Assembly (NCBI GenBank): GCA_964478705.1
Contig: CAYZIR010000003.1
Span: 17,223-81,222 of the forward strand
DNA length: 64,000 bases
Direction of reading: 5' to 3'
Source of the DNA: an uncultured Candidatus Saccharibacteria bacterium
Lineage (GTDB): Bacteria; Patescibacteriota; Minisyncoccia; Phycocordibacterales; EsbW-18
Shown: piece by piece, positions 8,829 to 63,218 of the stretch
Numbering within the stretch: the stretch's first letter is position 1
Layout of the letters: each line of letters begins with the position of its first letter
The notes under the pieces: generated by a model
What the model was told of the DNA's origin: nothing
Databases searched by the model: none
Seen by the model: only the letters and a program-made list of their open reading frames with translations
Translations under genes and position numbers: made by a program

Positions 8829-10619
8829 TTACTCTTTGCGTTTTGCTTTCGAGCGTTCGTTCTCGGTCAAGAATTGTTTTCGCAAGCGCACTGACTTCGG
8901 TGTAATTTCAAGATATTCATCCTCTGACATGATTTCAAGCCCGCGCTCAATAGAGAGAATGAATGGTGGAACGAGCGTCAACGCTTCGTCGGTTCCCGAT
9001 GCGCGAACGTTTGAGAGTTGTTTACCCTTCGTTGGGTTAACCGGCATTTCCTCACCCTTTGAGGTGTTACCGATTACCATACCTTCATACACTTCGGTTG
9101 CAGGACCAATATAGAGCACACCGCGATCCTGCAATCCCCAGAGAGAGAAACCGAGCGACTTCCCTGTTGCCATTGAAATCATTGATCCAACGACTTTACG
9201 TCGGATTTCGCCAGCGTATGGGCGGAAACCAATCACACGTGATGCAAAAATACCTTCTCCTTTCGTATCAACAATAAATTGGTTTCGATATCCAAGAATA
9301 CCTCGTGTTGGACCCTCAAAGATGAGTCGAACACTCGTCTCATGTTGCTTCATATCTTTCATGATGAATCCACGCTGACCCAGTCGCTCAATAACAACGC
9401 CTTGGTAGATTGCTGGCGTGTCGATTGTCACTTCTTCAAACGGTTCAACCTTCTTCCCTTCTTCTTCCTTAATGATTACTTGTGGTTGTGAGACCTGTAC
9501 TTCGTATCCGGCACGACGCATGTTTTCCAAAAGGATCGAAATATGGAGCTCACCACGGCCGTATACCTTAAAATTTTCATTCGTTGCAAAATCAACGCGA
9601 AGTCCAACGTTCACTTCAAGCTCGCGTTCAAGATAGTCACGAATTTGACGTGATGTCACATACTTTCCTTCTTTACCAGCAAACGGAGAATTGTTGACCA
9701 AAAATTGAAGGACGATGGTTGGTTCGTCAACCGCAATCGCAGGAAGCGCTTCGGCATCTGCGCTCTGGCATACCGTCTCACCGATGTCGATTGCAGGCAA
9801 ACCGGCAATAATTGCAATATCGCCTGCGCCCGCTTCAGCAACCTCTGTTCGCTCAAGCCCAGTAAAAGTGAAAACGTTCGTGATTTTTCCAGGTCGTGTC
9901 TCCCCTTTCATATTTTTTACGAACACGTTCATACCTGCTTTCACGGTACCTTCATAAATACGTGCAACGGCAAGTCGACCGAGGAAGTTATCGTAGGCGA
10001 GGTTAAATGGCTGTAAACGAAGTGGTTTTGCAGACAGCTCGGCTGATGATGCAACAGGGACTTTCTCAAGAATCAAATCAAGGAGTGGCATCAGGTCTTT
10101 TTGTTCGTCGTCGAGCTTTCGCATCGCAACACCGTTGCGTCCAATTGCATACATCACTGGAAAATCTGCTTGCGCATCAGATGCGCCCAGCTCAAGGAAG
10201 AGTTCGAGCACTTGTTCCTCACAACGTGCAGGATCCGCGGCGGGCTTATCGATCTTGTTGATGATGACAATTGGTTTCAATCCGAGTTCGAGTGATTTCT
10301 TCAATACAAAACGAGTCTGTGGCATCGGACCTTCCTGTGCATCAACGACCAAAAGGACCGAGTCGATTGAACGAAGAACGCGCTCTACTTCAGAACCGAA
10401 GTCGGCGTGACCGGGGGTGTCAACGATGTTAATCTTCGTTCCCTTGTAGGAAACGGATGTGTTCTTGGCGTAAATGGTAATACCACGCTCTTGTTCAAGG
10501 GCGTTTGAGTCCATCGAGACACCTTCTTTGGTCGCCCCTGTCTGGCGCATCAAAGCATCGGTAAGAGTCGTCTTGCCGTGGTCAACGTGTGCAATGATTG
10601 CAATGTTTCGTATTTCCAT
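8829..10619 (-). CDS. typA: Translational GTPase TypA/BipA
   Basis: AIIAHVDHGKTTL G1, DTPGHADF G3, NKIDK G4 and BipA C-terminal domain; 596 aa. Confidence 0.95.
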   Translation of the reverse strand: MEIRNIAIIAHVDHGKTTLTDALMRQTGATKEGVSMDSNALEQERGITIYAKNTSVSYKGTKINIVDTPGHADFGSEVERVLRSIDSVLLVVDAQEGPMPQTRFVLKKSLELGLKPIVIINKIDKPAADPARCEEQVLELFLELGASDAQADFPVMYAIGRNGVAMRKLDDEQKDLMPLLDLILEKVPVASSAELSAKPLRLQPFNLAYDNFLGRLAVARIYEGTVKAGMNVFVKNMKGETRPGKITNVFTFTGLERTEVAEAGAGDIAIIAGLPAIDIGETVCQSADAEALPAIAVDEPTIVLQFLVNNSPFAGKEGKYVTSRQIRDYLERELEVNVGLRVDFATNENFKVYGRGELHISILLENMRRAGYEVQVSQPQVIIKEEEGKKVEPFEEVTIDTPAIYQGVVIERLGQRGFIMKDMKQHETSVRLIFEGPTRGILGYRNQFIVDTKGEGIFASRVIGFRPYAGEIRRKVVGSMISMATGKSLGFSLWGLQDRGVLYIGPATEVYEGMVIGNTSKGEEMPVNPTKGKQLSNVRASGTDEALTLVPPFILSIERGLEIMSEDEYLEITPKSVRLRKQFLTENERSKAKRKE

Positions 10620-10620
10620 A

Positions 10621-10747
10621 CTTGTGAATTAATTGCACACGTTGTGCGAAAGGGGTCGGGAAAACTCTAGTTTTCCCGTATCGGAGAGCAGGGCGAAGCC
10701 CGCTGAGAACCGAGGGTTCTTAGGAAGTGGCGTAGCCACGACTGAGG
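10621..10747 (+). mobile_element. 127-nt multi-hairpin insertion (repeat family copy A) flanked by 32-bp direct duplication of the typA start
   Basis: 10589..10620 is identical to 10748..10779 (gtgcaatgattgcaatgtttcgtatttccata). The insert has palindromes gcacacgttgtgc, gggaaaac/gttttccc, gggcGAAgccc, ctgagaacc/ggttcttag, gtggc/gccac. Core 10688..10728 is identical to the reverse complement of 21853..21893. Confidence 0.6.
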
Positions 10748-10842
10748 GTGCAATGATTGCAATGTTTCGTATTTCCATATAAACAAAAAGAGCCGCGAGG
10801 GCTTTGACCCATCATACGATAAAAAGCTCTAAAAGACAACTC

Positions 10843-21043: not shown

Positions 21044-21814
21044 TTATTCAAACTCAACCAACAATGCCAGGTGATCCGAAACTTCATCTGGCAATGCTTC
21101 GAATTCTCTCACGTTAATATCTCCTGAAACTAAGACATAATCGGCAAATTTCTCCTCCTTCGGGTAATGATGATTACGTGTCGACGGTATGTTGTATTTT
21201 TTAATGAGGTTAATCATATTTTCTTCAAGCATATTCATGGCGTTACCATCATTCACGATATTGAAATCGCCACACAATATCTTTTTCCCTGTATGAGATG
21301 CTAGGAACTGGTTGATGACCTTCGATTGCTCGAGTCGCTCTGGAATATCTTTCTTCTGAGACTTATTTTTCCATAAACCATGGAGGTTGAGTACAGTTAT
21401 GCTTTCCTCACTGCTCAGTGCGAGCTTTACCCACTGGCACTTGCCACTCAGCATATCTCCTCCGCGCGTATACGACTGTTCAGGATGACTTTTGAAATGG
21501 CCGCTTTCCAGAATCGTGATATTTTTTCTTACAAAGATAACCTGCCCGCACCCAACCTCAGGATCAAGAAATTCACCATGGATGAATGATTCGGCGGGGT
21601 CTTTGTGTACAAATGAATCGAAATCGCTCAATACAGCGCGTAGTTCATCGTAGAGATTTAATCTTCCCTTCTGGACGGGACTAAACTCTGGCTGTGAACC
21701 AAAAAGCGCGTCCTGAAAACAAAAGATGTCGACGTCCTTCGAGTATTTCTGTATGAACGTCATGAGCGACTCATAGAGTTTACCGCCCCACAAGTTTAGA
21801 GTAATCAGTTTCAT
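21044..21814 (-). CDS. Endonuclease/exonuclease/phosphatase (EEP) family protein
   Basis: MKLITLNLWGG… start, catalytic SDHLAL near C-terminus, GDFN motif. ORF-track start at 21898 reads through the repeat element; the Met at 21814 is preferred. Confidence 0.75.
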   Translation of the reverse strand: MKLITLNLWGGKLYESLMTFIQKYSKDVDIFCFQDALFGSQPEFSPVQKGRLNLYDELRAVLSDFDSFVHKDPAESFIHGEFLDPEVGCGQVIFVRKNITILESGHFKSHPEQSYTRGGDMLSGKCQWVKLALSSEESITVLNLHGLWKNKSQKKDIPERLEQSKVINQFLASHTGKKILCGDFNIVNDGNAMNMLEENMINLIKKYNIPSTRNHHYPKEEKFADYVLVSGDINVREFEALPDEVSDHLALLVEFE

Positions 21815-21835
21815 GTTTGTTGCCGGACTAGGAAT

Positions 21836-22001
21836 CTCACTCGCTTCGCTCTCTAAGAACCCTCGGTTCTCAGCGGGCTTCGCCCTGCTCTCCAACACGG
21901 GAGAACACGTGTTCTCCCGACCCCACTCCTGTTCGAATCCAAGTCCGCGCTCAAACAGAAGTCACATTTCTGATACCGGACGGTATCAGAAATATCACTT
22001 G
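21836..22001 (-). mobile_element. Repeat family copy B: ~166-nt structured insert between a degenerate duplicate of the tRNA-Gln 3' end and the tRNA-Gln gene
   Basis: Core 21853..21893 is the reverse complement of 10688..10728 (41/41). Palindromes gggagaacac/gtgttctccc (21898..21917) and ttctgatacc/ggtatcagaa (21969..21992). Inverted tRNA 3' fragment gttcgaatccaagtccg at 21931..21947. Flank 21817..21836 ttgttgccggactaggaatc versus tRNA end 21999..22018 ttgttgccggacttggattc. Confidence 0.55.
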
Positions 22002-22072
22002 TTGCCGGACTTGGATTCGAACCAAGATACCCTCCTCCAAAGGGAGGTGTCCTACCATTAGACGATCCGGCA
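22002..22072 (-). tRNA. tRNA-Gln (anticodon TTG)
   Basis: Reverse complement TGCCGGATCGTCTAATGGTAGGACACCTCCCTTTGGAGGAGGGTATCTTGGTTCGAATCCAAGTCCGGCAA. 7-bp acceptor stem, anticodon loop CTTTGGA, T-loop TTCGAAT. Confidence 0.9.
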
Positions 22073-22201
22073 TTGTTCAATTGTCCTACCATTAGACCTG
22101 TCTAGCTGGCGCTAGCCAAGGCTGATCCGCCTCGGCTCGCTTCGCTTACCGAAGCGAGACGGGCGATCCGGCAGAATACAGGGACACTATACCCTGCGAC
22201 C

Positions 22202-22429
22202 CTACTTCTTTCCATATCGCTCGTGTATCTCAACGACCTTCTTCCGTGTGGTACTCCCTGCGACAATCCGTATCGCGGACTGTGGAACCTTGAGATATTT
22301 TGAAAGTTTGCGTATGACTTCAATGTTCGCCTTACCTTTTTCGGGAGTAGCGTTGATACCGACGACAAGTGTCTCGCCCTCTTCACGAACAAAGTCACCT
22401 TTGAGTTTTACACTCACCGAACGCTTCAT
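22202..22429 (-). CDS. yggU: DUF167/YggU-family protein
   Basis: 75 aa, …GETLVVGINATPEKGKANIEVIRKLS… typical of UPF0235/YggU. Confidence 0.7.
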   Translation of the reverse strand: MKRSVSVKLKGDFVREEGETLVVGINATPEKGKANIEVIRKLSKYLKVPQSAIRIVAGSTTRKKVVEIHERYGKK

Positions 22430-27303: not shown

Positions 27304-27353
27304 GATGATTGCCTTTAGAATCCCTTTATATAGGCAAGTATATAGTATGCGCG

Positions 27354-28223
27354 ATGGATGCACAGCCCCCTATACGCACACTCTCAAAAAATGAATTTCC
27401 GCCTCTCCTACGCGAAATTCATGATCCACCGAAGCGTCTTTTTATACGCGGAAGTGATATCAATCAGTCATACATCTACCTCGCGGTTGTTGGCTCTCGG
27501 CGCTACTCTCACTATGGAAAAGACGTGTGCGAAAAACTCATCCACGGGCTTGCTGGGTATCCGATTTGTATTGTGTCAGGACTTGCCCTTGGTATTGATG
27601 CTGTTGCACATGAAAGTGCAATTCGTGCGGGACTCCCCACGATTGCGCTCCCTGGCTCAGGGATCGATGGACGCGTGCTCTACCCTCGTGCACACACTGG
27701 ACTCGCACGAACAATACTCTCTCATGGAGGTGCGCTTCTCTCGGAATATGAACCGATGCATGAAGCTGCGCCGTGGTGCTTTCCTGCCCGCAACCGAATC
27801 ATGGCCGGCATGTCTCACGCCGTGCTCGTTATTGAAGCACGAGAGCGTTCTGGGACACTCATAACCGCTCGCCTTGCGATGGAATGTGGGCGTGACGTGT
27901 TGGTTGTTCCTGCACCAATTTTTTCTCTCCACGGCATCGGAAGCAATCAATTGCTCCGAGAAGGTGCGCAGGTTGTTACATCATCAAAGGATATACTCCA
28001 AGCACTTGGTATTACACCTGACGAAACGACGGGCGCACCACTTCAGACCAACCTTTCCGACGACGAACGGATGTTGATAAAACTCCTTGAAGAGCCACAA
28101 CCGCTCGATGAACTTGTTAGACGCTCCGAGCTCCCTGTTTTTCGAACACAAACACTCATTTCAGCGCTCGAGATAAAGGGATATGTCGTGGAGAGACTCG
28201 GCATGATTGAGCGCGTACAATAA
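27354..28223 (+). CDS. dprA: DNA processing protein DprA (Smf)
   Basis: Rossmann-like DprA core …VVGSRRYS…GLALGID…ARERSGTLITA… ORF-track start 27309; the ATG at 27354 avoids overlapping the serS start. Confidence 0.85.
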   Translation: MDAQPPIRTLSKNEFPPLLREIHDPPKRLFIRGSDINQSYIYLAVVGSRRYSHYGKDVCEKLIHGLAGYPICIVSGLALGIDAVAHESAIRAGLPTIALPGSGIDGRVLYPRAHTGLARTILSHGGALLSEYEPMHEAAPWCFPARNRIMAGMSHAVLVIEARERSGTLITARLAMECGRDVLVVPAPIFSLHGIGSNQLLREGAQVVTSSKDILQALGITPDETTGAPLQTNLSDDERMLIKLLEEPQPLDELVRRSELPVFRTQTLISALEIKGYVVERLGMIERVQ

Positions 28224-33736: not shown

Positions 33737-33836
33737 ACGAAATTAACTTAGATGAAACTATTGTAACAGAGAGATAAGTATAAAAATACATTTATTGTTA
33801 CTTTGAGTCATCCTTGATATAGTGTTTTCAAAGACG

Positions 33837-33919
33837 CGCCGAGGTGGTGGAATAGCAGACACGCAGGACTCAAAATCCTGTGCTCGCAAGAGCGTGAGGG
33901 TGCAAGTCCCTCTCTCGGC
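33837..33919 (+). tRNA. tRNA-Leu (anticodon CAA), type II with long variable arm
   Basis: GCCGAGGTGGTGGAATAGCAGACACGCAGGACTCAAAATCCTGTGCTCGCAAGAGCGTGAGGGTGCAAGTCCCTCTCTCGGCA. Close match to canonical tRNA-Leu architecture. Confidence 0.88.
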
Positions 33920-33923
33920 ACAC

Positions 33924-34604
33924 ATGAAAAAACGGCTTCCTGATAAAGATTTTATATGGACGCCGTCTTTGGCATATGCAGTCGGACTCATTGTCACTGA
34001 CGGCAATCTTTCTTCGGACGGACGCCACATCATTATGCGTTCCAGTGAGAAACAACTCTTGGAAACGTACAAACATTGCTTACAACTTAGAAATATAAAG
34101 GTTGGCACATCCCGTTCAAGTGGTCACACCACTAAACTCTCGTATCGCGTGCAACATGGTGACGTGCGTTTGTATCGATGGTTGGAAAAAATAGGCATTA
34201 CCGCCCACAAAACACACACGATAGGAGCCATAGCAATCCCTGATGCAATGTTTTTGGATTTTCTTCGCGGCCATCTTGATGGTGATGGTTCAATCACAAC
34301 GTATACCGATCGTTGGAATACATTCAAAAACCCTAACTATGTGTATGAACGCTTGTGGCTCCGATTTCTTTCGGCAAGCGAAACGCATATGATATGGCTT
34401 CAAAAAAGAATAGAGAAAATTATGGGTGTAAAAGGACATCTTAATAAACGTACTCCCCGTGACTCAAGACATGTTCCGATGTACTCGCTGAAGTTTGGCA
34501 AAAAGGATTCACTTGTTCTCCTAAAGCACCTATATCCACATAAACGTGTTCCGTGTTTGAAGCGAAAGAGAAAAATTGCTGAACCATTTTTATCTCGAAT
34601 ATAA
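33924..34604 (+). CDS. LAGLIDADG homing endonuclease (two-motif, single-chain)
   Basis: Motif 1 LAYAVGLIVTDGNL and motif 2 FLDFLRGHLDGDGSI. ORF-track 33822..34604 starts inside the tRNA; the first ATG is 3 nt after the tRNA 3' end. Coordinates ±1 because of a read-register discrepancy here. Confidence 0.8.
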   Translation: MKKRLPDKDFIWTPSLAYAVGLIVTDGNLSSDGRHIIMRSSEKQLLETYKHCLQLRNIKVGTSRSSGHTTKLSYRVQHGDVRLYRWLEKIGITAHKTHTIGAIAIPDAMFLDFLRGHLDGDGSITTYTDRWNTFKNPNYVYERLWLRFLSASETHMIWLQKRIEKIMGVKGHLNKRTPRDSRHVPMYSLKFGKKDSLVLLKHLYPHKRVPCLKRKRKIAEPFLSRI

Positions 34605-39188: not shown

Positions 39189-39343
39189 TTTCTATTATAA
39201 TACCGCGTCCTCCGTGACTCGGAAGTCTCAGCAACTTCCTCACAAGAGGCTCAGAATACCCTTATAAAGCTTCCATCACGGAGTACTTAACTTGAGGGAA
39301 AACAGGGTCACGCACCTTTTCCCTAACAGCTAGCACCTAGAAA

Positions 39344-39748
39344 CTAGGCACTGTGTTTCTTATACCCTCTCCACCCCAAAAACGCGAAAAGGGAATTCGC
39401 AAGGAGAATGACAACACCGACCGCAATGATTTGTGGTCGGCTCATATCGGGAAGAAGTTTTTCATACACGAACCAGAACCCGATCATGCCAGCGACGATA
39501 TCGAGAATCCAGTTTTCAAGTTCCTCCGCGATACCAAAGACCATTTCACCTATTTCCCATCCGGTGAGAATCAGGAGCACAAACGGATACGCATACATCG
39601 GATGCATACCCACCGCTGCGAGCACGCAGGCAGAGACCGCACCAGTCAGTGCATGGACAATCATCCAGAGGTCCCATATTTTCCCTTCCTGAAAACTCCA
39701 CGAAATGAAGGGGACTGGATCGGGTGCTTTAAAATTTATTTTCTTCAT
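39344..39748 (-). CDS. Hypothetical membrane protein
   Basis: Four TM helices; no motif. Confidence 0.5.
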   Translation of the reverse strand: MKKINFKAPDPVPFISWSFQEGKIWDLWMIVHALTGAVSACVLAAVGMHPMYAYPFVLLILTGWEIGEMVFGIAEELENWILDIVAGMIGFWFVYEKLLPDMSRPQIIAVGVVILLANSLFAFLGWRGYKKHSA

Positions 39749-39850: not shown

Positions 39851-40732
39851 TCATAGACCACGTAATGCTTTTATTCTCTCCTCAACCGGCGGATGTGTCA
39901 TAAACAATTTTGAAAGACCTTTTGTGCCTGGACCGAAAGGGTTTGCGATGAAGAGATGCGCTGTTGCCTGGTGCGCGGATTTAAGTGGTGCACCGTAGGT
40001 TGCAATTTTCTCAAGTGCGGATGCTAGCCCTTCTGGATAGCGTGTGAGAAGCGCGCCAGACGCGTCCGCGAGAAATTCACGCTTTCGTGAGATTGCAAGT
40101 TGAATCAAGGTAGCTGCAATGGGCGAAAGAACTATGAGGACGATGCCGACGATTGCGAGCACACCGCCAGCTTTATTATCTCGGTCTCCCCCGCCAGAAA
40201 ACGACGACCGGAGGAAGAAATCCGCAAGTAAGCTGATGAATCCCACCAACACAACGACGACTGTGGAAAGAAGAATATCCCGATTACCAATGTGTGAGAG
40301 CTCGTGCGCAATCACACCCTCAAGCTCTGTTCGCGTGAGCCGTTCGAGCAGCCCTGTCGTGACAGCAACCGCTGCGTGTTCTTTATCTCGACCCGTTGCA
40401 AACGCGTTCGGTGCAGAATCACGGATGATGTAGAGCTTCGGCATGGGAAGTCCCGCGGTGATTGAGAGATTTTCGGTGACCGTGTAGAGATCAAAGAATT
40501 CTTCGCGTGTTGCAGGGCGGGCCTTTGAAACCGCGAGCGCGATCTTGTCAGAGAACCAGTAGCTCCAGACGTTCATGATGATGCTTATAACAATCGCAAC
40601 CGGAAGTATCCCCGGCGCATCATAGACATAGCTCAAGCTCCAGCCGACAGCAATGACTATGATGAAAAAGAGGGTCATGAGGCCCCAGGTTTTTGCAATA
40701 TTGCTGTCTTGATGGGTGTAGAGGGTGGACAT
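39851..40732 (-). CDS. htpX: Zinc metalloprotease HtpX (M48)
   Basis: HELSHIGNRD HExxH motif and four TM helices; 293 aa. Confidence 0.9.
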   Translation of the reverse strand: MSTLYTHQDSNIAKTWGLMTLFFIIVIAVGWSLSYVYDAPGILPVAIVISIIMNVWSYWFSDKIALAVSKARPATREEFFDLYTVTENLSITAGLPMPKLYIIRDSAPNAFATGRDKEHAAVAVTTGLLERLTRTELEGVIAHELSHIGNRDILLSTVVVVLVGFISLLADFFLRSSFSGGGDRDNKAGGVLAIVGIVLIVLSPIAATLIQLAISRKREFLADASGALLTRYPEGLASALEKIATYGAPLKSAHQATAHLFIANPFGPGTKGLSKLFMTHPPVEERIKALRGL

Positions 40733-40744
40733 GGACTGGGTTCA

Positions 40745-40828
40745 AGGTGCTAGGTGATAGGTTCTAGGTGCTAGGTGATAGAGACTAGGTACTAGCTTAT
40801 AGCTTTTAGGGTGTAGGGTGTAGAAGAT
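40745..40828. repeat. 12 tandem heptamers (consensus AGGTGNT) immediately upstream of htpX
   Basis: aggtgct aggtgat aggttct aggtgct aggtgat agagact aggtact agcttat agctttt agggtgt agggtgt agaagat. Related shorter arrays at 42004..42040, 51440..51470, 39325..39347 and 42965..42990. Confidence 0.7.
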
Positions 40829-41445: not shown

Positions 41446-42003
41446 CTAAAATTGTACTTTCACTGGTTCGCGGGCTTCTGGATTCTCGTCGAGATCGAAG
41501 AAGTCGCGTTTGCCAAAGCCAAACATTCCGGCGATAAGGTTGCTCGGGAATGTTTGAACCGCGGTGTTCAAGTCGCGAACATTGCCGTTGTAGAAGCGAC
41601 GTGCTGCCTGAATTTTGTTTTCGGTGTCAGAAAGTTCGCGCTGAAGTTCGAGGAAGTTTTGGTTTGCTTTCAAGTCTGGATATGCTTCAGCAACCGCAAA
41701 GAGCGATTTCAAAGCACCCGTGAGCATATTTTCTGCTTTTGCATGATCGCCAATCGATTGTGCGCCCATCGCTGCTGCTCGTGCTTTGGTCACATTTTCA
41801 AACGCTTCGCGTTCGTGTGTCGCGTATCCCTTTACAGTCTCAATCAGGTTTGGAATCAAATCGTAGCGACGCTTCATCTGCACATCAATATCTGACCACG
41901 CTTCATCCGAACGAACTCGTAAACGGACGAAACGGTTGTAGAGCACGATGATGCCGACAATGAAAACCGCGAGGATAATGAGAAAGATAAAAAGTGGTGT
42001 CAT
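41446..42003 (-). CDS. lemA: LemA family protein
   Basis: N-terminal TM then …LIETVKGYA.HE…F..VT.AR… LemA signature. Confidence 0.85.
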   Translation of the reverse strand: MTPLFIFLIILAVFIVGIIVLYNRFVRLRVRSDEAWSDIDVQMKRRYDLIPNLIETVKGYATHEREAFENVTKARAAAMGAQSIGDHAKAENMLTGALKSLFAVAEAYPDLKANQNFLELQRELSDTENKIQAARRFYNGNVRDLNTAVQTFPSNLIAGMFGFGKRDFFDLDENPEAREPVKVQF

Positions 42004-42098
42004 GGGATAGGTTCTAGGTGATAGCTTATAGGTTCTAGAAATACAAAGTAAGTATAACAGAAAAAGAAAAGCGCCGACGAATGTCGGCGCACCAGAAA

Positions 42099-42841: not shown

Positions 42842-43007
42842 CTACCTCCGAGGAGAAAAATTTGTTTTAGAACACCCGAGAAGACAATACAATTATTAAA
42901 CAAAAAAGCAAGACATCACTGCCCTGCTTTCTGTTTTTTGTTTCCCCTATCCCCCTGCCTTCCGGCAGGCAGGCTAACCCCTATAAGCTAGCACCTAGAA
43001 CCTGCTT

Positions 43008-62825: not shown

Positions 62826-63119
62826 CTATACCATACGCTTCAGTTTTTTGGAAGTTTTTATTCGATACGGAGTTATCGACTTCGATACAGTGAGTGCCAG
62901 CTTCGCGCTTCGGGATAAACGTTTTATTTCCGCCTCCCGCTTTGATGCAGTACTTCGATTTTTCTTTCGTTCGGTATAGGCAATGTTCACTGCTCCCTTT
63001 GCTCGCGTATAACGCCCTCCCAATCCCTTTTTGTGCTCCGCGAGTCGTCGTTTCATATCAGTCGTGATGCCGGTGTACAGAGAACCATCACCACAGCGTA
63101 GAATATAAACGGTATACAT
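62826..63119 (-). CDS. GIY-YIG nuclease-domain protein (UPF0213-like)
   Basis: …YTVYILRCGDGSLYTGITTDMKRRLAEHK… GIY-YIG core. Confidence 0.75.
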   Translation of the reverse strand: MYTVYILRCGDGSLYTGITTDMKRRLAEHKKGLGGRYTRAKGAVNIAYTERKKNRSTASKREAEIKRLSRSAKLALTVSKSITPYRIKTSKKLKRMV

Positions 63120-63218
63120 GACTCTCAATTGTTGTTATATGTGGGAGAGTATATTGTATCTCCCCTGAGGTTTCAGGAACGCACAATCTAAGCTACAAAT
63201 TCTGGGGTTTCTGGAACA

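Follow-up and report, generated by a model that had tools for sequence, protein, structure and literature searches.

A probable family of protein-less miniature insertion elements with target-matched segments at gene ends of CPR bacteria

The 64-kb stretch of DNA analysed here (64,000 nucleotides, referred to as the window) carries two copies of a small structured module, copy A at the start of typA/bipA and copy B at the end of a tRNA-Gln gene, which very probably belong to a family of mobile, protein-less insertion elements of about 130-270 bp present in several CPR bacteria (Patescibacteria). Each well-preserved member combines a conserved core with direct and inverted copies of the gene end at which it stands. 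Successive target copies define a repeat unit of 159-274 nt, and the element between the repeats measures 127-162 nt, without any ORF.

Two copies of one structured module in the window

A 41-nt core sequence is found exactly twice in the window, at 10683-10723 on the plus strand and at 21853-21893 on the minus strand, where none would be expected by chance. The block shared by both copies spans 72 nt with 90% identity, including the 41 identical nucleotides, and this common core, together with the same surrounding architecture, bears out an earlier proposal, made from the letters of the window alone (the sequence-only reading), that A and B represent one family. The consensus fold of the core consists of three plain hairpins with two compensatory pairs, and its alternation of G-C and G-U pairs fits the sense strand only, which together hint at a single-stranded functional form. 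The predicted fold is very stable (z = -9.2), its hairpin loops tolerate large insertions at two loci of other genomes (L003 and L006), and GCGAAGC, a very stable DNA mini-hairpin, is present in the core and in several of the variable arms.

Database searches did not relate this core to any described sequence family. Rfam covariance models returned no family for it, with only tRNAs reaching the gathering threshold and only sub-threshold matches to miRNA-type hairpins at E values up to 10. A core 21-mer was absent from the viral contigs searched, the whole element had no match in phage or plasmid collections, and an nhmmer profile of the core revealed neither additional nor divergent copies, whether in the window or among the loci fetched from other genomes.

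The coordinates of both copies are given in Table 1.

Table 1. Features of the two element copies and of the 5' side of tRNA-Gln, in positions of the window
Feature	Position	Strand	Basis
5' side of tRNA-Gln: native tRNA start fragments, insert and linker	22073..22173	-	repeat search
tRNA-Gln(TTG), functional gene and target of the element	22001..22072	-	ARAGORN; Rfam tRNA model, 63 bits
Copy B, proximal target copy: 3' part of the tRNA, T-loop through 3 nt beyond the discriminator, GAATCCAAGTCCGGCAACAA	21999..22018	-	direct repeat
Copy B, spacer: 18/20 palindrome, terminator-like hairpin followed by TTCTGTTT	21948..21998	-	inverted repeat 21959-22000
Copy B, inverted (guide-like) copy of the tRNA T-arm/acceptor, 17/17	21931..21947	-	pairs with 22006-22022
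Copy B, core: 72-nt module with three hairpins, GGGGTCGGG..CCCG / GGGCGAAGCCC / CTGAGAACCGAGGGTTCTYAG	21853..21924	-	
Copy B, variable right arm: 16 nt, ends GAGTGAG, holds the GCGAAGC mini-hairpin motif	21837..21852	-	alignment
Copy B, distal target copy GATTCCTAGTCCGGCAACAA, 18/20	21817..21836	-	direct repeat
Copy A, proximal target copy: the 31 nt at the start of typA/bipA and 1 nt upstream	10589..10620	-	perfect 32-nt direct repeat
Copy A, inverted copy	10627..10645	+	13 nt perfect, 10633-10645, pairs with 10583-10595
Copy A, core: 72 nt, reading away from the typA gene body as in all other copies	10652..10723	+	
Copy A, variable right arm: hairpin GTGGCGTAGCCAC, end CGACTGAGG	10724..10747	+	
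Copy A, distal target copy, continuous with the native upstream intergenic region	10748..10779	-	

The direct, inverted and 5'-side partial self-copies that the sequence-only reading had described around tRNA-Gln proved to be real by a repeat search, by shuffling and by comparison with Logan assemblies. In 3000 shuffles of the region 21700-22300 neither a direct repeat of at least 16 nt nor a spaced inverted repeat of at least 17 nt was obtained, spaced inverted repeats being those of odd length and hence non-palindromic. Three independent Logan assemblies (L011, L012 and L013) recovered the tRNA with its 5' duplications, together with spacer, inverted copy and part of the core, and they break inside the repeats, which is the behaviour expected of k=31 assemblies. 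Some details had to be corrected. The inverted 17-mer is a perfect match, with 58 nt between its arms (21931-21947 versus 22006-22022); the degenerate direct copy of the tRNA 3' end is present, with an identity of 18/20 and not 17/20; and of two palindromes described as perfect, one is so (21898-21919, 11+11), whereas the other (21959-22000) pairs at 18 of 20 positions.

The inner boundary of the repeat lies at the T-loop position GGTTC/GA (the slash marking the boundary) in copy B and in two further elements, L005 and L025, which involve three different tRNAs. A terminator-like site is predicted at 21995-21964, inside the spacer of copy B, and the orthologous locus L025 has a hairpin homologous to that of the spacer, with compensatory changes. 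The distal copy stands 2 nt upstream of the ATG (21812-21814) of the next gene, a member of the endonuclease/exonuclease/phosphatase family, and the CCTAG that it contains matches the T-stem of a tRNA-Gln(CTG) at locus L014. The ending GAGTGAG or GAGTAAG is also found directly before the direct copy in L005 and L014. The tRNA-Gln(TTG) itself has anticodon and T arms near-identical to those of the tRNA-Gln(TTG) at locus L027. Inspection of the tRNA-Leu and tRNA-Ser loci of the window revealed no architecture comparable to that of tRNA-Gln.

On the 5' side of the gene, nucleotides 10-25 of the tRNA, a 16-nt piece of its D-arm (22048-22063), recur as a perfect copy at 22082-22097, as previously noticed, and nucleotides 1-10 recur perfectly at 22164-22173, a repeat absent from the earlier list. 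These two start fragments are parted by a three-hairpin insert of 66 nt (22098-22163) that carries AGCGAAGCGAGCCGAG, a sequence close to the right-arm motif of copy B, and a 9-nt linker (22073-22081) separates the D-arm copy from the tRNA gene. A promoter-like site at 22214-22186 (TGGAAA, 17-nt spacer, TATAGT) has its predicted transcription start just upstream of 22173. The same site is conserved in L025, where the tRNA begins 14 nt past the TATAGT box and shows no duplications. Because the fragment at 22173 holds the native position seen in L025, the outer fragments correspond to the native tRNA start. Judged from this alignment, the functional tRNA-Gln now lies about 100 nt farther downstream of the promoter-like site, and the 5'-side fragments are not part of copy B. 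The 5' region putatively represents one or more older, nested and partly deleted insertions at the 5' end of the tRNA.

Copy A lies directly upstream of typA/bipA, which was identified by Pfam at 8829-10619 on the minus strand. For the repeat at this gene, 3000 shuffles gave no direct repeat longer than 13 nt. Six target nucleotides matched by the inverted copy (10583-10588) are inside typA and outside the direct repeat, and the Logan contig L013 ends within the distal repeat. Relative to the gene body, the layout of copy A equals that of the copy at tRNA-Gln. The core is antisense to typA but in sense orientation relative to the tRNA and to rplL, which argues for a logic operating at the DNA level and not at the transcript level.

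Related elements and empty sites in other genomes

A 21-mer from the core was used to scan collections with one genome per species as well as JGI metagenomes. The exact 21-mer was present in 5 of 185,579 species genomes, and about 12 loci were available in all, which is a small sample. The core, with its 41 identical nucleotides, was found in MAGs of Paceibacterota, Nomurabacteria and Saccharibacteria, at the loci L001-L006 and L008; a metagenome match (L007) was discarded as a chance match inside a coding sequence. The window itself belongs to a CPR (Patescibacteria) bacterium with a small genome. Homologues of the neighbouring genes of the window are named Paceibacterota or Parcubacteria, and the window encodes a short DnaX, TypA, Dus and DprA. 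Alignment of the loci shows that the core hardly varies between distant hosts or among at least four kinds of target.

The order of the segments, read away from the gene, is invariant: gene end, optional spacer or terminator, inverted copy, core, variable arm and direct copy. The earlier proposal of a miniature element without integrase at gene termini is supported, and members of the family also stand at other gene ends in other genomes. At L005, the element adjoins the 3' exon of a tRNA with a group I intron; its core, like the adjoining ACAGGAGT and the GAGTGAG ending, hardly differs from that of copy B, and it has a perfect 17-nt direct copy of its tRNA 3' end and a partial, target-matched inverted copy. 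In L001 (= L009), L004, L008 and, more distantly, L006 (= L010), the core is located 3' of the rplL 3' end, accompanied by an inverted copy of the last codons and by a repetition of the final 8-9 codons with the stop codon. L014, which contains the closest relative of the neighbouring gene (77% at the amino acid level), shows this architecture behind a tRNA-Gln(CTG), where the three-hairpin core diverges strongly and two direct copies are present, the second of them preceded by a remnant ending GGTGAGTAAG. The orthologous locus L025 (Dus-DnaX-DUF167-tRNA-Gln(TTG)) has a variant core and a perfect 19-nt repeat. L002 and L003 possess the core without recognisable target copies.

A second family (type 2) was detected after rplL in L023 and L008, with an unrelated core that is 91% identical between the two and with a target-matched inverted copy of its own directly 5' of that core. 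Comparison by blastn revealed no relation among the type-1 core, the type-2 core, the core of L014 and the 66-nt insert 5' of tRNA-Gln. The elements have also been a source of mis-annotation, in the form of ORF starts extended over the distal copy and of a stop codon supplied by the element in L002.

Comparison with relatives turned up empty sites. The rplL site is empty in L021/L022 and in L024, which have the same synteny (rplJ, rplL, a gene for a 189-aa protein and MscS) and an intergenic region of 49-88 nt made up of an A-rich stretch and a terminator. Likewise, the 3' flank of tRNA-Gln(TTG) in L027 is empty, with the next ATG 32 nt away. The genomes with occupied rplL sites do not form a clade, as rplL of L001 is 91% identical to that of the empty L021 and 82-84% identical to those of L004 and L008, and the core is 99-100% identical among L001, L004 and L008, with host third codon positions at 41-63%. 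These alignments of close relatives show the elements to be insertions, present in some and absent from others, and the empty sites therefore speak for insertion and not for the scar of an island. With an arrangement that is patchy rather than ancestral everywhere, and with further copies elsewhere, the interpretation as an element stands.

Direct and inverted copies of the target

The earlier suggestion that insertion duplicates 17-32 bp of the target was right about the presence of repeats, which measure 17, 19, 20, about 27 and 32 nt, but these are probably not simple target-site duplications, in view of the mosaic and the synonymous differences found at rplL. The proximal and distal rplL copies of four loci differ at 4-7 of 27 positions per locus (15-26%), and all the differences (22/22) are synonymous, so that the second copy is not one that was duplicated and then decayed. 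At its left end, the distal copy has the same seven bases, GCTGGTG, in each of the four elements, and these are continuous with the conserved end of the arm, GCGACGACN. Native or proximal copies carry GGA or GGC instead (7/7). The right part of the distal copy is host-like: AAAGTCACTTTGAAGTAA in the distal copy of L008 differs by 1 nt from AAAGTCACTTTGAAATAA in the native gene of L023, and after the stop codon comes the same A-rich stretch and terminator as at the empty sites. On its right side, the proximal copy is the same throughout (AAGGTGACYCTYAAGTAA) and runs into a spacer that is conserved, specific to the element and equipped with a terminator of its own. This mosaic fits a single Campbell-type crossover, which we infer from the four rplL elements to be placed near codon -7. 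More generally, the sequences make it probable that integration was of the Campbell type, with a terminus borne by the element.

The outer boundaries of the repeats coincide with gene boundaries (stop codon +0 to 2, tRNA discriminator +0 to 3, ATG -1), presumably because the incoming element supplies a new end for the gene and moves the native one away. In the tRNA and typA elements, the two repeats resemble each other too closely to reveal a mosaic. The distal tRNA copy lies 2, 4 and 10 nt from the next start codon in three lineages, upstream of three different genes, a position unexpected of a native tRNA end but compatible with a distal copy borne by the element.

An inverted copy is present in every well-preserved member of both families, just 5' of the first core hairpin and matched to the member's own target, a constant feature that the sequence-only reading had missed. 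With a length of 13-19 nt, it precedes hairpin 1 by 4-10 nt and shows complementarity to the left flank, and the match to the own target applies to copy A, L001/L004/L008, L005, L014 and the L023/L008 pair. The inverted copy covaries with the proximal copy in L001, L004 and L008 (gct/agc, gca/tgc and gcg/cgc), and covariation is also seen in type 2 (AAA/TTT versus AAG/CTT), although selection is not needed for it if the template can switch between neighbouring inverted repeats. On the host side, the inverted copy goes 4-8 nt beyond the repeat (6 nt in A, 4 nt in B and L005, and likewise in the L001 type), and the left half of the inverted copy in rplL elements matches the host-type GCCGGAG, not the GCTGGTG of the element. 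It therefore spans the left recombinant junction, with both its host and its element side.

The cores of copy B and L005 are near-identical and their inverted and direct segments are wholly different, which implies that target modules were exchanged on a constant scaffold. Whether this amounts to retargeting is more speculative: the inverted copy might be a guide encoded in cis, as DNA or RNA, that pairs across the junction of host and element, so that, with an enzyme acting in trans, swaps of about 20 nt would redirect the 72-nt scaffold to any gene terminus, but we consider this rather doubtful.

Proposed integration, alternatives and known systems

We lean slightly toward regarding the family as miniature integrative elements that are mobilised in trans and programmed for their targets. 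Integration would proceed by a single (Campbell-type) crossover within the 17-32 bp at the end or start of the gene, of which the rplL copies would be the visible product, and the tRNA and typA copies would have arisen by the same crossover. The element would deliver a replacement terminus, leaving the gene intact, and the native terminus would be pushed to its far side. The choice of target would be written in the element itself, the direct copy being the homologous segment for the crossover and the inverted copy, which straddles the left junction, working as a base-pairing guide or splint. This would most plausibly occur in a folded single strand, in which the inverted copy would pair with the element's own copy of the terminus and with the adjacent host bases, and a putative recombinase or transposase acting in trans would recognise the conserved core. 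A folded single strand is suggested because a circle of 159-274 nt is too small for comfortable double-stranded synapsis; by analogy with other systems, this guide or single-strand step is a possible but tentative part of the scheme.

A Pfam scan of 37 ORFs of the 64-kb window detected no recombinase, transposase or reverse-transcriptase domain, and no recombinase match was obtained among the 7 ORFs around L005. The DprA encoded in the window shows that machinery for ssDNA uptake exists, which has only a circumstantial bearing on the element.

Several other models were considered and rejected. Splicing, or an intron, is incompatible with the distal rplL copy being out of frame in L001 and with the stop codons that intervene in L006, and splicing of the tRNA would leave a product with a mismatch in the T-stem. 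The same analysis of frames and stop codons eliminated read-through or a separate ORF as explanations of the conserved distal copy. Models of simple target-primed reverse transcription, worked by hand, failed to give the order of segments, and snap-back extension of a palindrome fits copy B but not L001.

An alternative that we hold to be rather unlikely is a MITE-like transposon moved by a transposase in trans through widely staggered cuts. In that case the repeats would be genuine target-site duplications (17-32 bp), to which local template switching later added the inverted copy. Long duplications are made by some insertion sequences (the IS1202 group) and by Cas1-type integration, the repeats are perfect in copy A (32 nt), L005 (17 nt) and L025 (19 nt), and the spacer is nearly absent from the minimal copies, A and L006. 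A duplication of this kind is nevertheless hard to reconcile with rplL copies that differ by 15-26%, all synonymously, despite an element that is younger or better conserved than the flanking host DNA, and with a left part of the distal copy (GCTGGTG) that is specific to the element in 4/4 cases. Moreover, the spacer or terminator beside the proximal copy in B, L001 and L005 should have been duplicated and is not, the terminal inverted segments are specific to the target instead of conserved, and the length of the repeat varies.

Quite unlikely, too, is a structured ncRNA module on the transcript of the neighbouring gene, with a function in UTR processing, stabilisation or antisense control, that was spread horizontally and left the repeats as by-products; its inverted copy would pair with the end of the mRNA or tRNA. 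The very stable predicted fold (z = -9.2), the compensatory and G-U changes on one strand, the large loop insertions tolerated in L003 and L006, and the covariation of the inverted copy with the gene end would all suit such an RNA. They are countered by the orientation of the core, antisense to typA but sense for the tRNA and rplL, by the terminator hairpins that lie between gene end and inverted copy in B, L001 and L005, by a T-arm pairing that would unfold the tRNA, and by the lack of any Rfam family match; direct copies, empty sites and mosaic copies would be left unexplained. An ncRNA role is, in any case, not exclusive of mobility.

That the repeats represent attL and attR in the scar of a larger island or prophage, excised or deleted, as the sequence-only reading had offered as its alternative, is very improbable. 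The repeat does begin in the tRNA T-loop, which is reportedly a classic crossover position of integrases. The 3' ends of tRNA and rplL genes and the 5' ends of genes are also known integrase targets (e.g. dusA, PMC4482086). The interior of the supposed scar is, on the other hand, a conserved structured module that is the same at unrelated targets: the 72-nt core recurs in distant phyla, on which independent deletions would not converge, no integrase remnant is present, and occupied sites exceed empty ones by only 127-255 nt. Local replication error at hairpin-rich terminators, with template switching and no mobile element, is hardly credible, for although the order direct, inverted, direct is the product of two switches and the tRNA end, spacer and inverted copy of B form one 92-nt quasi-palindrome, the identical 41-72-nt core at different loci and phyla and the element-specific GCTGGTG would go unexplained, and L001 is not a simple extended palindrome.

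The integrative element that we favour has analogues in several known systems, and by the sequence features compared below its membership in these families fails on their defining features. Tyrosine-integrase elements (tRNA phages and islands, dusA-specific elements; PMC4482086) share with it a Campbell-type product, direct repeats that contain the gene terminus, a restored gene, a repeat that starts in the T-loop (at three tRNAs) and housekeeping targets (tRNA, rplL and typA). As in att sites, the direct repeats include the gene terminus and a copy borne by the element restores the gene, to judge from the rplL mosaic and the native terminator, and the T-loop sublocation of tyrosine integrases is seen at GGTTC/GA in B, L005 and L025. 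In contrast to those elements, there is neither integrase nor cargo here, a unit of 159-274 nt falls short of the size of a conventional double-stranded attP circle, a single core goes with many target segments, and the inverted target copy is a constant feature.

The guide of IS608, which precedes a hairpin foot, forms base pairs with flanking DNA at the left junction (PMC3201880), and engineered IS608 with guides of 12/17 nt is retargeted (PMC5934647). The present elements resemble the IS200/IS605 (IS608) and PATE group in being hairpin-rich, in having no terminal inverted repeats common to the copies and in showing signs of strand specificity, and the geometry of a putative guide, a segment 5' of the hairpin foot with complementarity to the left flank, is present. 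Natural IS608 guides have 4 nt, in contrast to 13-19 nt in this family, and IS608 inserts 3' of a fixed tetranucleotide, without repeats and without a copy of a gene end, whereas here direct repeats of 17-32 nt flank all the well-preserved copies. No tetra- or pentanucleotide or cleavage motif common to the junctions of the copies was detected, and no TnpA in the 64-kb window.

The attP(+) of CTX phage, used by XerCD, and the attC of integrons have inverted segments about 90-100 nt apart, which can fold into a stem that mimics a double-stranded target, as could the segments of these elements. By our own reasoning from the CTX model, the order target, body, inverted target, loop, target is what single-strand exchange followed by replication would be expected to give. 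CTX attP and integron attC depend on a fixed site (dif, or the R box of attC), whereas the stem sequence here changes with the target; direct reading of the sequences disclosed neither a dif-like 28-mer nor an R box (GTTRRRY) common to the copies.

A structured module with target segments on both strands that span the crossover is a likeness to the bridge (seek) RNA of IS110/IS1111, and such a likeness would explain how one scaffold serves many targets. The elements differ in having no adjacent DEDD recombinase gene or ORF, in guides that are much longer and mutually complementary, and in three plain hairpins with long direct repeats, as against two stem-loops with internal guide loops and a 2-nt core. 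With MITEs and REP/REPIN sequences they have in common that they are small, non-coding, hairpin-forming, intergenic and, presumably, trans-mobilised; here, conserved terminal inverted repeats and a short duplication of fixed length are lacking, the copy number is low (2 in 64 kb), and the association with gene termini and target segments is strict. A literature search for miniature elements of CPR bacteria or for integrative elements without integrase found nothing relevant. We place the family among site-specific integrative or non-autonomous mobile elements; that its targeting principle is new is conceivable but less likely than not.

The use of one scaffold for many targets points to integration programmed by base pairing. 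If true, this would be a natural form of programmable site-specific integration, either a counterpart of the engineered long-guide IS608 or a new class of recombinase, and the partner enzyme, if found, could give a compact tool for programmable insertion. In practical terms, the elements cause breaks in assemblies. They would rank among the smallest site-specific integrative elements described, without any gene, in which a scaffold and segments derived from the target choose the site and repair the gene. Their concealed position at the ends of essential genes would explain how mobile DNA can survive in CPR bacteria, whose genomes are very small and streamlined.

Nested elements after rplL and modules within the core

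A second structured element, type 2, lies just 3' of rplL in L023 and in L008 (Table). The two copies, from divergent hosts, are 91% identical, and the type 2 core is unrelated to that of the first element family. An inverted copy of the rplL end, GTCACTTTGAA[A/G], is found immediately 5' of the type 2 core. The L008 copy is also followed by short direct repeats of the gene end, TTGAAATAA and TGAAATAA. Because the type 2 element is also present after the rplL gene of L008, two nested elements occur at this one gene end. At the rplL locus L001, an additional hairpin-rich insertion is located after the distal rplL stop codon and before the native A-rich/terminator region, and is absent from L004.

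The element family is modular, with large insertions in core hairpin loops of L006 and L003 (Table). The module inserted in the core of L003, a locus in which target copies are not recognisable, was found again in the element of L025, the orthologous tRNA-Gln(TTG) locus.

Positions of the features described in this part; coordinates without a locus handle refer to the window
Feature	Position	Strand	Remarks
Type 2 element	L023:1439-1548		
Type 2 element	L008:3416-3531		
Additional insertion	L001:3552-3640		~75 nt, GCAGAGCTTG...CGCTTGATA
Insertion in loop of core hairpin 3	L006:1842-1897		56 nt; rplL locus
Insertion in loop of core hairpin 1	L003:4232-4400		~110 nt
Degenerate tRNA-Gln 3'-end look-alike	L014:1779-1792		GTCAGCAACAA; immediately before tRNA 5' end
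Degenerate tRNA-Gln 3'-end look-alike	L014:2460-2480		GCCAGCAACCA; 17 nt before endonuclease/exonuclease/phosphatase gene start
Group I intron	L005:2992-3260		Rfam RF00028, 69 bits
LAGLIDADG-type ORF	33822-34604	+	Pfam LAGLIDADG_3, E = 1.5e-6
tRNA-Leu(CAA)	33838-33921		adjoins LAGLIDADG-type ORF
7-nt-periodic CTAGGTG/ATAGGTT-like repeat clusters	40725-40823, 41996-42052, 39314-39346, 42974-43003		direct and inverted orientations
Stand-alone GIY-YIG nuclease-domain ORF	62826-63128	-	100 aa
DprA gene	27309-28223	+	single-stranded DNA processing for transformation
Longest ORF of the gene downstream of copy B	21044-21898	-	GTG start inside element
Core at 3' end of CCA-adding-enzyme-like gene (L002:1087-2547)	L002:2432-2772		inverted orientation

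tRNA loci and other features of the window

The look-alikes in L014, the tRNA-Gln(CTG) locus, may be relics of older events. In L005 the target of the element is the 3' exon of a tRNA split by a group I intron, a tRNA that ARAGORN did not detect. The LAGLIDADG-type ORF of the window likely starts 4 nt past the 3' end of tRNA-Leu(CAA), and no tRNA-derived repeats were found around it. The periodic repeat clusters flank the HtpX/LemA region on both sides. The GIY-YIG ORF and the DprA gene may have a bearing on mobility or on the uptake of DNA, but both are unlinked to the element.

Coding sequences at element borders

If read from the GTG at 21898, the gene downstream of copy B, the element copy at tRNA-Gln, would wrongly gain 28 codons, which lie across the distal target copy and some of the core. 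The ATG at 21814 agrees with the 256-aa homologues. In L002, where no target copies were recognisable around the core, the right arm contains the last codons and the TGA stop of the CCA-adding-enzyme-like gene, the end of which may have been remodelled through insertion of the element.
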